Positions 243 to 1,501 of a stretch of DNA of 5,682 nt are shown one piece after another. The notes beneath the pieces are model-generated. The model was given only the letters and a program-made list of their open reading frames with translations, did no database searches and was not told where the DNA came from. Location of the stretch: NCBI RefSeq assembly GCF_003334785.1, contig NZ_QOWV01000042.1. One strand, 5' to 3'. The stretch comes from Escherichia coli (GTDB lineage Bacteria > Pseudomonadota > Gammaproteobacteria > Enterobacterales > Enterobacteriaceae). The position numbers and the translations under genes were made by a program. Numbering within the stretch: the first letter of the stretch is position 1; every line of letters begins with the position of its first letter.

Positions 243-1406
243 TTACTCTGTTATTGATGAAAGGATTGAGCTCATCTTCTGAATAGAAGATAACTTTCCT
301 TTCATTAGAAGTCTAATTTTAGCCATTATCTCAGGATCTGTCGCAGATTCTAGCTTTTTAGATAGACCAGCAATTTCTGCCTTTTCTCTTTTTATTCTGT
401 TTTCTAGGAGTGCTCGGTGTTCACTGTTGCTTGTGTTACTTCCAGCTCCATACCCATTCCCTGTTGAAATGTTGAGGTTTTCGGTGTTTATTTTAAGATC
501 GAATGCGTTGTTTATATTTAAGATTAGTTCTTTTGTGTTTATTACATCAAAAAATTGAACGCTTGAGTTATTTAGCATTTCCTCTCTTAATATAGCGTGA
601 ACGCCTTTGTTTTCTCTATTTTCTTTATCTCTACCAACTTTAAATATGAAGTCATCTTTTGCATCATTAGTGATTAGGAAAACGTTTTTCGCACCTGTTG
701 ATGCGGCATGCTCTAGAGTTTCTTTCCATATGTAGAAATCACCATAAGCTCTTTGATAAGTAATGCCGTCATAAGAGAATATATTGTCTGGCTTTCCTAC
801 CTTGTCTGCGTCACAGAATCCAGGGGGCGTTTTTAATTCATACCTTGATTTACATTCAGCATCTAATCCATTAATGTATTCTTGGTCCTTTTTTACGCCT
901 ATTTTTCCAGAGAATATGTTGTCAATCCATTCTCTATGTATGTCTTTTGTATTTAACTCATCAATTGATTCATTGAGTTTTCCATACATATCCTCTAGTC
1001 CTGAGTTTAATAAATCAATGGATTTTTTTATTAACTCAGATACTTGTCTGTTTAGCCCTTCGTAATGCCTTGCTTTGGAGTTGTTGCATTTTTCTAATAG
1101 TTTTGATGAATAAGATAATAAATCAACAACAGGAGATGTTGTTGTTGATATCAAGTGTTTCTGATCGTCGATAACCCCTAATCTTCTTCTCTGATACTCC
1201 AACGCAGTAAAATAAGGGAGATATATATTTTCTCTTATCTGTTCTATTGATTTCTTTATCGCAGATATTGTTTCCTGGTTGTTTCTATATAGGTCTAATA
1301 TGACATTGGTGTCAAAAACAAATAATGTATCATCTGCCCTGTATATATCAGGATTGTCCTTTATGTTGCCTGTATAAAATCCTTTAAACATATCCCTCAT
1401 CGACAT
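243..1406 (-). CDS. PIN-like (VapC/PhoH-PIN type) predicted nuclease with a large insertion between the first and third catalytic motifs; C-terminal predicted coiled coil. Function unknown. Longest open frame extends to 1493 (416 aa, TTG first codon)
   Basis: This is a 1.2-kb open frame on the minus strand. I prefer the start at ATG complement(1404..1406), which has AGGGG 6 nt upstream. The 29 codons above it up to 1493 have no ATG with a ribosome-binding site. Motifs support a PIN domain. DTLFVFDTNVILDLY gives the beta1 acidic residue, LEYQ gives a glutamate about 40 aa later, and NVFLITNDAKDDFIF about 215 aa later matches the VapC-type hhTxN/DxxDF third/fourth acidic motif. GDFYIWKETLEHA precedes the last of these. 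GC content by eye is about one third, against about 55% in the backbone. The fold call comes from motif recognition only. Confidence 0.75.
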   Translation of the reverse strand: MSMRDMFKGFYTGNIKDNPDIYRADDTLFVFDTNVILDLYRNNQETISAIKKSIEQIRENIYLPYFTALEYQRRRLGVIDDQKHLISTTTSPVVDLLSYSSKLLEKCNNSKARHYEGLNRQVSELIKKSIDLLNSGLEDMYGKLNESIDELNTKDIHREWIDNIFSGKIGVKKDQEYINGLDAECKSRYELKTPPGFCDADKVGKPDNIFSYDGITYQRAYGDFYIWKETLEHAASTGAKNVFLITNDAKDDFIFKVGRDKENRENKGVHAILREEMLNNSSVQFFDVINTKELILNINNAFDLKINTENLNISTGNGYGAGSNTSNSEHRALLENRIKREKAEIAGLSKKLESATDPEIMAKIRLLMKGKLSSIQKMSSILSSITE

Positions 1407-1501
1407 AAAAAAGCCCCTATTATTCATTTCTGTTTTGTTCTTTTCGTCAGTTGCTGACTCTTGTGTCAACATCAAAATCAATCGATCATGCAAATGATCT
1501 C

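Follow-up and report, generated by a model that had tools for sequence, protein, structure and literature searches.

A G+C-rich repeat core inside an AT-rich PIN_8 cargo module: base composition of a ColE1-type plasmid from Escherichia coli

Small plasmids of the ColE1 family combine a conserved replication and mobilization region with a variable "gene capture" region (Ares-Arroyo et al. 2018, PMC5864857), the former having 51.7–59.4% and the latter 32.4–52.5% G+C, and a variable region of low G+C set on a conserved region of 52–59% is the norm in enterobacterial ColE1 plasmids (PMC5864857). For the exchange of their modules an Xer- and oriT-mediated model was put forward by Tran et al. 2012, at least as that work is cited in PMC8683028. 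The stretch of 5,682 nucleotides analysed here (the window; E. coli assembly GCF_003334785.1, contig NZ_QOWV01000042.1) resembles this family in its RNAI/RNAII origin, rop, mbeABCD and cer site, and also in a backbone with about 54% G+C as in the host, a variable region of lower G+C and a cargo edge lying exactly at the Xer core. The cargo of the window contains no colicin or resistance gene, nor does it encode restriction-modification or a recognised toxin-antitoxin pair, which sets it apart from the known ColE1 cargo; unlike usual cargo, too, a part of it, the core of a tandem repeat array, has backbone-like composition. The base-composition break itself is ordinary for a small plasmid of the ColE1 kind and alone adds nothing new, being documented ColE1 plasmid structure.

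Judged by its sequence, the whole window is a ColE1-type mobilizable plasmid, and it has about 99.9% identity to plasmid RCS83_pIII of E. coli ECOR10 (L001, NZ_LT985292.1). Rop, MobC, the relaxase, MbeB and MbeD were assigned via 99.9% identity to this annotated sequence, and Rop, the MOB(P/HEN) mobilization genes and the cer dimer-resolution site typical for ColE1 were all found; the relaxase gene of the window is broken by a 26-bp duplication. The origin is of the antisense-controlled RNAI/RNAII type, its region being 90–93% identical to that of thousands of ColE1 plasmids, and RNAI (1543–1645, minus strand) was matched by Rfam RF00106 with 76.5 bits (gathering score 47, E = 2.6e-13). The start of the conserved replicon (1491–1645) comprises this gene and the RNAII promoter region on the plus strand with the −35 hexamer TTGAGA read at 1501–1506, the promoter being placed by its presumed likeness to the pMB1/pBR322 origin sequence. 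On the other side a cer-like XerC/XerD core (GGTGCGTACAA-TGGGATG-TTATGGTAAAT; 5058–5086, plus strand) was found as a pattern match that 0 of 200 shuffles reproduced, where the arms are those which we take to be XerC and XerD sites according to the ColE1 cer sequence.

[quoted passage not shown] In thousands of other ColE1 plasmids the homology ends at 5069 or 5086 and restarts at about 1491, in many of them within 1488–1496; the cer core is the left boundary of the cargo, with the stop codon of the repeat gene 15 nt past it, and the right edge of the block was measured at about 1491–1551, where an earlier note on this DNA had started the backbone at 1500. The sharp break claimed there is real: the PIN-like gene has 33.9% G+C, the first 150 nt of the repeat gene 32–33%, the repeats 48–55% and the backbone (1545–5086) 54.2%, the PIN gene differing from the backbone with chi2 = 151 and p = 8e-35. 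In sliding windows of 75 bp the maximum within 76–1493 was 48% (none at 50%), and the minimum in the backbone was 41% (none at or below 34%). Scanning of the AT-rich cargo stretch upstream of the PIN_8 gene (1407–1490, minus strand) gave no convincing promoter candidate, and scans for an operon promoter and terminator returned nothing usable. The same two-gene module was also detected on unrelated Rep3/MobA backbones and on one contig with an integrase-like ORF. Its atypical composition, its edges at recombination sites and its occurrence on other backbones support the reading of the AT-rich block as exchangeable cargo, probably swapped via Xer recombination at cer and homologous recombination in the origin region, and the break would then be the usual contrast between a host-adapted ColE1 backbone and such cargo. 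The proposal that the cargo is foreign stands to this extent, while its second half, acquisition from a low-GC donor, is not supported.

The variable region appears to be filled by a two-gene operon, in which an AT-rich gene for a predicted PIN_8 nuclease is followed after 13 nt by a gene whose acidic product consists of a 25-aa leader and tandem repeats of 24–29 aa. The predicted nuclease gene (VapC-like PIN fold; 243–1406, minus strand) encodes 387 aa from an ATG at 1406–1404 (MSMRDMF...), while the mechanical ORF extends upstream to 1493; over 243–1493 the G+C is 33.9%, with 0.39/0.31/0.31 at the three codon positions (GC3 0.31). The protein was matched by the PIN_8 profile PF18476 with 143.3 bits (cutoff 26.1, E = 1.4e-41), and the PIN fold and acidic metal-binding catalytic residues of this family, listed as "function unknown" (PMC5499597), are conserved in it. 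The intergenic spacer of 13 nt (GAAGGAGTATCAT; 230–242, minus strand), as read from the sequence, lies between the PIN_8 stop TAA (245–243) and the repeat-gene ATG (229–227) and carries the Shine-Dalgarno motif AAGGAG; a spacer of 12–13 nt with AGGAG is also present in lineages L010, L011, L012, L025, L026, and L027.

The 5' part of the repeat gene, regarded in the earlier note as unique, is so only in its translated aa 1–25, the true leader (MDGRFMIKKSHLMSSKYDHDALDDL; 155–229, minus strand; G+C 0.33), which has no in-register similarity to the repeat and shares with other lineages the motif MN[DE]xSFLxKK with invariant M1, F5 and K9. The following aa 26–50 (SNELIEKLKYEYKMLQNVKSFSVSE; 80–154, minus strand; G+C 0.32) are a decayed AT-rich repeat unit, with 40% in-register nucleotide identity to the unit consensus and an in-register BLOSUM62 score of 26 against a shuffle mean of −17 (P = 1e-4); this in-register test is the only significant one, since in free local alignment of leader and repeat 609 of 2000 shuffles reached the real score. 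Then comes the first homogenised 75-bp unit (1–79, minus strand; G+C 0.48–0.51), in which the left end of the window truncates the gene. The 3' part of the array (5101–5621, minus strand; about 6.6 units of 75 bp; TRF period 75, 6.6 copies, 91% matches) closes with a final unit that is decayed (LNRYLDNELRNLKIK), followed by the stop codon (5103–5101). The complete gene in L015 encodes 346 aa with 11 core units, and the same gene is found in the ECOR10 plasmid, to which the window is 99.9% identical up to 5621. Beyond this point the 61-base tail (5622–5682, minus strand; G+C 29.5%), absent from the ECOR10 plasmid and other assemblies, is a diverged copy of the junction between decayed unit and array with about 70% nucleotide identity and an in-frame TAG, so that the window contains two leader-proximal sequences (160–80 and 5682–5622), about 70% identical, each joined to near-identical repeats.

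Within the repeat gene the G+C is 31.4% in the 5' part (90–229) and 48–55% in the 75-bp units (50.7% in 1–75 and 51.7% in 5125–5621), the compositional break being located at about 80 rather than at the previously suggested 90. Leader and array differ in G+C with p = 3e-5; since the array is an amplification of one unit, a fair test has to use a single unit, and the consensus unit has 40 G+C among 75 positions (binomial p = 4e-4 against 33.8%). The core of the array has a G+C of 0.52, and GC2 of about 0.2 is unchanged between core and PIN gene, while GC3 is 0.64–0.76 in the former and 0.31 in the latter. The codon-usage score, defined as the mean log2 preference per codon for backbone-type over PIN-type synonymous codons, was +0.96 for the repeat core, +1.10 for the consensus unit and +0.77 for the held-out backbone gene mbeB, against −0.47 for the PIN gene (all 25-codon windows at or below +0.04) and +0.07 for the leader. 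When the repeat amino acids are written with PIN codon preferences, 33.8% G+C is expected and 52.5% is observed. For leucine the core uses CTG 33 times and TTA never (0 and 15 in the PIN gene), for arginine CGN 16 times and AGR never (1 and 18 in the PIN gene), and for glutamate GAG 24 and GAA 5 times, in comparison with 26 and 39 in the backbone gene mbeA; CTC is also frequent in the core. Both G+C and codon usage therefore confirm the compositional mosaic that had been noticed by eye, and this mosaic stems entirely from synonymous codon choice.

The core exceeds the PIN gene in G+C by 12–30 points in the window and L015, L027, L025, L017/L012, L026, L006/7, and L005, and at least six lineages at synonymous saturation show the rise in G+C and GC3. 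Fourfold-site identity of the PIN genes between most lineages is 0.26–0.40 against 0.28–0.34 expected, which is at or near saturation, so that a one-off import should have been erased. In sliding-window correlations based on overlapping windows the G+C climbs with self-similarity within the gene, and it drops in the decayed edge units at both array ends. Homogenisation alone does not yield high G+C, since in L008/L009 a well-homogenised array has only 28–37% G+C, with GC3 of 0.31 in the repeats and 0.23 outside them. Lineages with G+C-rich cores may share one ancestor and need not stand for separate origins, and a tracking of backbone G+C by repeat G+C (five lineages, not significant) is a mere possibility because L005 and L008 have similar backbones and different repeat G+C.

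A recent transfer of the entire cargo out of a low-GC organism, with a donor signature not yet ameliorated, would agree with the 20-point G+C deficit and its sharp edge and with relatives whose plasmid backbones have about 41% G+C, one being labelled Proteus mirabilis; however, the PIN_8 gene lies well below even these AT-richer backbones (27.9% against 41% and 27.3% against 41%). In each of the nine close lineages PIN_8 genes have 27–34% G+C, irrespective of that of the backbone (roughly 39–54%, where enough backbone sequence was available), GC3 stays within 0.19–0.31 in all lineages with saturated synonymous sites, and distant PIN_8 genes are below their flanks in 8 of 8 contexts from several phyla. 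A donor lineage of matching composition was not identifiable: single-protein and family-alignment scans of 185,579 species-representative genomes revealed no close relative, and neither did the viral contigs that were scanned. In the search of a phage collection one distant match was obtained. With a G+C lower than that of the surroundings in every context examined, the AT-richness is, as far as these sequences indicate, a long-standing trait of the PIN_8 gene family and not the fingerprint of a particular donor, none of which can be named, and a recent low-GC source is accordingly an unlikely explanation. Another possibility is that one 75-bp unit, G+C-rich by chance, was amplified and mimics a compositional domain, as the array is effectively one sample of 25 codons and the single-unit p is only 4e-4; yet the same rise occurs in at least six lineages that differ in unit sequence and period, and the codon-usage score of the unit is not approached by any 25 codons in a row of the PIN gene. 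This sampling artefact is hardly credible and is effectively refuted by the recurrence across lineages.

The abruptness of the codon-usage switch, completed within about 75 nt, would also suit a graft, in which a repeat cassette with native-like codons was recombined from another gene onto the AT-rich leader, as the earlier note proposed in assigning separate histories to the two; the second leader-proximal segment at 5622–5682, about 30% diverged and joined to near-identical repeats, likewise points to graft or cassette exchange. Nevertheless, the leader and the acidic repeats of 24–29 aa follow the PIN_8 gene in all relatives of 56–92% identity, the units are homologous between lineages with a similarity that drops roughly with PIN_8 protein divergence, AT-rich decayed units border the core in register at both ends, and the contrast, seen again where the unit sequences differ, outlasts synonymous saturation. 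The separate homologue searches gave no other unit-like sequence in 5,426 complete E. coli genomes and no leader homologue without repeats, and all of this makes a graft improbable. Finally, the repeats could act as nucleic acid, either as a type III (ToxIN-like) RNA antitoxin or as DNA binding sites, with the G+C serving structure, since a tandem array adjoining a nuclease gene on a small plasmid is generally ToxIN-like. This is very improbable, because the repeat periods of 72, 75, 78, 87, and 123 nt are all multiples of three, a long repeat ORF (335 codons in L008) is kept even at about 31% G+C, Shine-Dalgarno, ATG and leader peptide are conserved, and the conservation of units between lineages is at the amino-acid level with differing nucleotide sequences. 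In addition the RNA folds worse than 199 of 200 shuffles (z = +2.36), an Rfam match is absent and the array stands downstream of the nuclease gene, not upstream.

The explanation preferred here is that the array arose in place, without a graft, and evolves by concerted evolution; the synonymous codons of its homogenised core would be actively kept G+C-rich and like those of the backbone, with AT-richness persisting in the PIN gene, the leader and the decayed units at the edges. The favoured driver, which we infer, is a G+C-biased fixation of variants during recombination or conversion within the array, and there may in addition be selection for translating the partner protein efficiently in relation to the nuclease; a G+C bias is preferred over pure translational optimisation because the core prefers GAG over GAA and CTC is frequent in it. 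GC-biased gene conversion in bacteria is reported by Lassalle et al. 2015. The account as a whole, that is ColE1 cargo, AT-richness as a PIN_8 trait, an array evolving in place with a G+C-rich core and a function of the toxin/immunity type, is considered reasonably probable.

As to function, the PIN_8 and repeat-protein pair is most likely a module of the toxin/immunity type or of abortive defence, in which the role of effector would fall to the predicted nuclease and that of its inhibitor or sensor to the acidic and possibly LRR-like repeat protein; this is suggested by the conserved PIN fold with its acidic catalytic residues and by the tight coupling of the two genes in an operon. When modules of such type occur on small plasmids, they often serve addiction or anti-phage defence, and the LRR ribonuclease inhibitor, which blocks RNases, offers an analogy for the repeat partner. 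In PADLOC-DB 2.0 the PIN_8 protein had no match and the repeat protein only weak summed repeat matches, as the matches of repeat proteins in Pfam, NCBIfam, PHROG and PADLOC are all sums of weak per-repeat scores with no single stretch passing and were therefore discounted. In a collection of 5.8 billion proteins no match to the full-length repeat protein was obtained, and the leader with one unit retrieved just four near-identical proteins with collapsed arrays. A description of such a pair was not found in the literature. It is a tentative and rather doubtful idea that this is an undescribed plasmid toxin/immunity or anti-phage module with the array as a rapidly homogenising surface, its core driven to G+C-rich codons like those of the host by conversion bias or selection; in that case the array would serve as a recognition or inhibitor surface, and selection may favour an excess of the partner over the nuclease.

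Whatever its role, the cargo is an uncharacterised, rare two-gene module on small multicopy plasmids of Enterobacterales and pairs PIN_8, a family without assigned function, with a repeat protein without family. Over long spans of evolution, two adjacent parts of one operon have kept synonymous codon usages that differ strongly, and as this difference follows repeat homogenisation, G+C-biased conversion and translational selection can be tested against each other on a 1-kb plasmid gene. If the tentative reading above is true, the array is a compact case, found in nature, in which G+C enrichment linked to recombination takes place within one bacterial gene. To our knowledge, a switch in codon usage on this scale, by about 20 G+C points inside a single plasmid gene of 1 kb, has not been reported.

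In comparison with known systems, the module resembles VapC-type PIN toxins (type II toxin-antitoxin) in its conserved acidic residues and its tight two-gene operon on a plasmid; however, its PIN_8 protein has three times their size, long helical inserts and a coiled region at the C-terminus, and in place of the small antitoxin of VapBC-like systems its partner is encoded downstream, has 300–350 aa in acidic tandem repeats and shows no domain above threshold and no recognisable DNA-binding antitoxin domain. With ToxIN (type III) it shares the tandem array adjoining an endonuclease-type gene on a plasmid; unlike the untranslated folding RNA repeats of that system, the repeats of the window are translated (in frame, with a leader and amino-acid conservation), lie downstream, are less structured than their shuffles and have no RNA structure or Rfam family. 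To BspA-type LRR (LRR_5) the array may be similar by units of 24–29 residues and by the motif SL.xVSFGD..L..(L/I)..Y, which aligns in register; the top phmmer matches of the array are LRR_5 proteins and the BLASTP alignment is in register, with E-values inflated because both sequences are repeats, and in the shuffled-unit control 0 of 300 reached this likeness, with targets picked after the search. Unlike LRR_5, the repeat protein is extremely acidic, and Pfam LRR gave no match at E <= 0.1 for the window-type protein, leaving the partner without a Pfam family, while LRR_5 scored 17.7 bits in the L006 partner, under the cutoff of 27.7; the single-sequence AF2 model of the array has a strand and a helix per unit with a pLDDT of 55, a low confidence that makes it too poor for a fold search. 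In its evolution the gene is comparable with the concerted evolution of coding tandem arrays and the G+C enrichment that goes with recombination, having a homogenised core, decayed edge units and a higher G+C where homogenisation is active.

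The window is a contig of a ColE1-type mobilizable plasmid. RNAI was found by Rfam at 1543–1645 on the minus strand, and positions 1543–5621 and 1–1542 are 99.9% and 99.8% identical, respectively, to RCS83_pIII (NZ_LT985292.1), a circular 5,912 bp plasmid of E. coli ECOR10, annotated with Rop, MobC, a truncated relaxase, MbeB, MbeD, a “hypothetical protein,” and a “PIN-like domain-containing protein.” Both window ends fall within the 75-bp tandem array of this “hypothetical protein” gene, and the break point in the array is common to two further public assemblies of the same plasmid type. 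In mbeA a 26-bp segment is perfectly duplicated in tandem (2.3 copies; 3425–3483, plus strand), and the resulting frameshift splits the MbeA relaxase between two ORFs (3048–3545 and 3650–4639); since the ECOR10 record also contains only an annotated 165-aa N-terminal fragment, mobilizability may have been lost in this plasmid lineage; intact mbeA (521 aa) is present in two metagenome contigs of the same plasmid type (L015 and L016).

The composition break described in the earlier note is real and large: the PIN-like ORF (243–1493, minus strand) has 33.9% G+C against 54% in the backbone (1545–5086; chi2 p = 8e-35). The 5' unique part of the downstream repeat gene, which starts at 229 on the minus strand, has 31–33%, and the repeats have 51–53%; since amplification of one unit produced the array, a single consensus unit was tested as well (40/75 G+C, p = 4e-4). 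All 75-bp windows of the AT-rich block are below 50% G+C, while every 75-bp window of the backbone stays above 34%.

Thousands of ColE1 plasmids with different cargo have the backbone in common with the window, and their homology ends at 5086 or 5069 and restarts at ~1488–1496, in some cases at 1540. A cer-like XerC/XerD core (GGTGCGTACAA-TGGGATG-TTATGGTAAAT, 7-nt central region) occupies 5058–5086, its last base being 5086, and 5069 is the junction of its XerC arm and central region; the RNAII promoter, placed by likeness to the pMB1 origin, lies just downstream of 1491. Thus the cargo, whose limits are 15 nt past the repeat-gene stop codon and 85 nt before the PIN start, occupies exactly the plasmid's variable slot, and the coincidence of breakpoints with the cer-like core positions suggests that cargo exchange is Xer-mediated. 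An Xer-like site is also located near the PIN_8/repeat module of L006 and L007, two other PIN_8-bearing sequences. Module exchange via Xer/oriT was proposed for ColE1-type plasmids by Tran et al. (2012), as that work is cited in PMC8683028, and in enterobacterial ColE1 plasmids the conserved region has 52–59% G+C and the variable region 32–52% (PMC5864857). The cargo was therefore rightly called foreign; however, as this structure is already published, the backbone/cargo break is ordinary.

The further claim, that the cargo came from a low-GC donor, is not supported by its relatives. Close PIN_8 relatives (56–92% identity) are rare: three PLSDB records, all of the window's plasmid type, plus a few contigs from metagenomes or short-read assemblies. 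Searches of 185,579 species-representative genomes and of viral contigs yielded no further ones. Their backbones differ (ColE1; Rep3/MobA, one labelled Proteus mirabilis; a contig also encoding an integrase-like ORF), and PIN_8 has 27–34% G+C in all of them, well under even 41%-G+C backbones; in 8/8 distant PIN_8 genes from several phyla G+C is likewise below the flanks. Low G+C is thus a trait of the PIN_8 family across the mobile gene pool and does not point to a donor. The small ColE1-type plasmids L019 (K. pneumoniae pC51_006) and L020 (Rahnella pHW114B) carry as cargo a longer (~574 aa), distantly related PIN_8, so that PIN_8 genes appear to travel repeatedly on small plasmids. In L013 (5032–7565) a distant homologue (33% identity) lies directly 3' of type III restriction-modification genes (methylase and ResIII helicase) and precedes a gene for a 421-aa Walker-A protein, a partner different from the repeat protein; this context is defence-island-like.

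Within the repeat gene, the codon-usage analysis named in the earlier note revealed a wholly synonymous difference: GC2 is flat (~0.2 throughout), while GC3 is 0.31 in PIN, 0.32–0.44 in the first 50 codons of the repeat gene, and 0.64–0.76 in the core units. With PIN codon preferences the repeat amino acids would yield 33.8% G+C, against 52.5% observed. The switch is complete for leucine (PIN, CTG 0 and TTA 15; core, CTG 33 and TTA 0) and arginine (PIN, CGN 1 and AGR 18; core, CGN 16 and AGR 0). The backbone-type codon score is +0.96 bits per codon in the repeat core, +0.77 in the held-out backbone gene mbeB, and −0.47 in PIN; in codon choice the core exceeds mbeB in backbone likeness.

This mosaic is borne out family-wide, since in most lineages the core repeats exceed PIN by 12–30 points of G+C: 52% and 34%, respectively, in the window type, 45% and 33% in L027, 45–52% and 31% in L025, 45–55% and 33% in L017/L012, 45–48% and 32% in L026, and 57–66% and 31% in L006/L007; in the Proteus plasmid L005 the GC3 of units, counted by hand, is ~0.42 versus 0.19 in PIN. 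The exception is L008/L009 (28–37% versus 31%). Within genes G+C and GC3 climb with local self-similarity and drop in degenerate units at both ends (overlapping windows, p-values being descriptive only). Between the window and L017, L026, L006, L005, L010, and L008 the fourfold-degenerate sites of PIN are at or near saturation (identity 0.26–0.40 versus 0.28–0.34 expected), at which a historical import would be erased, and so the contrast must be maintained. Across the family, then, the mosaic persists as a maintained trait of an array undergoing homogenisation.

The earlier note suggested that repeats and leader have separate histories, offering as an example a repeat cassette grafted onto a leader domain. 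Against this, in every close lineage 12–13 nt with AGGAG separate the PIN_8 stop from a gene with a short leader (MN[DE]xSFLxKK...; MDGRFMIKK in the window) and acidic tandem repeats of 24–29 residues per unit, with periods of 72, 75, 78, 87, and 123 nt, all multiples of three. The units are homologous across lineages (identity with the window 13/16 in L027, 22/38 in L017, and 9/37 in L008), their similarity dropping roughly in step with PIN divergence. Residues 26–50, which the note placed in the unique N-terminal part, align in register with the array as a decayed unit (P = 1e-4), and the last unit is likewise decayed; the same test detected no in-register unit in residues 1–25. The leader was not found outside the PIN_8/repeat-protein family at the sensitivity available, and PIN_8 genes at greater distance have a different partner or lack one. 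The sole observation in favour of repeat exchange between different leaders is the AT-rich 5622–5682 (the last 61 bases), missing from the ECOR10 plasmid and all other assemblies of the plasmid: it is a ~70% identical second copy of the leader-proximal decayed-unit/array junction with an in-frame TAG, joined to units identical to those of ECOR10. It may reflect genuine rearrangement, another paralogue, or a chimeric assembly. Closing the window into a circle would make the repeat gene that begins at 229 end two codons beyond position 1. The conserved architecture, homologous units, and decayed edges together argue against a graft.

Within the one plasmid type (L001, L015, L016, and L002–L004) unit number and order vary between assemblies, from 3 to 11 core units, part of this spread certainly being collapse in short-read assemblies. 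In the array ORF (5101–5652, minus strand) unit variation is clustered at a few residues (H/L, L/R, E/K, D/K, M/K), with 11 nonsynonymous and 6 synonymous variant codons. The 173-aa “mirror” ORF opposite the array (5161–5682, plus strand) was discounted as a by-product of the stop-free repeated unit.

For a maintained contrast, concerted evolution would homogenise the array core while edge units escape, and G+C-biased fixation in intra-array recombination or conversion would keep core G+C high, in line with the confinement of high G+C to actively homogenising parts. The unusual lack of structure in the repeat mRNA (z = +2.36) makes it plausible that selection for a high ratio of partner to nuclease translation also contributes. 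E. coli prefers GAA for glutamate, while the core has GAG 24 and GAA 5, a stronger skew than in the backbone gene, and uses CTC often; such a general preference for codons ending in G or C points to a bias in composition rather than to translational optimisation alone. The L008/L009 repeats are homogenised yet low in G+C, so homogenisation alone is insufficient; with so few lineages, a dependence of repeat G+C on the host is a possibility at most.

As a PIN_8/repeat-protein module, the cargo is uncharacterised; it matched no PADLOC model, and the PIN classification (PMC5499597) lists PIN_8 as “function unknown.” A ToxIN-like RNA antitoxin was rejected, as the repeats are coding and lack RNA structure. 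Among 1.84 billion representative proteins the best array matches are BspA-type LRR_5 proteins, in register (SL.xVSFGD..L....Y); 0/300 shuffled units reached the real score, with targets picked after the search. Together with a below-threshold LRR_5 match from one independent lineage's partner and a low-confidence AF2 model in which each unit has a strand and a helix, this provides a lead, not a result, to an LRR-like solenoid serving as nuclease inhibitor or sensor. Conserved and tightly coupled, the PIN nuclease and its acidic repeat partner, carried on small multicopy plasmids, look like a toxin/immunity or abortive-defence module.
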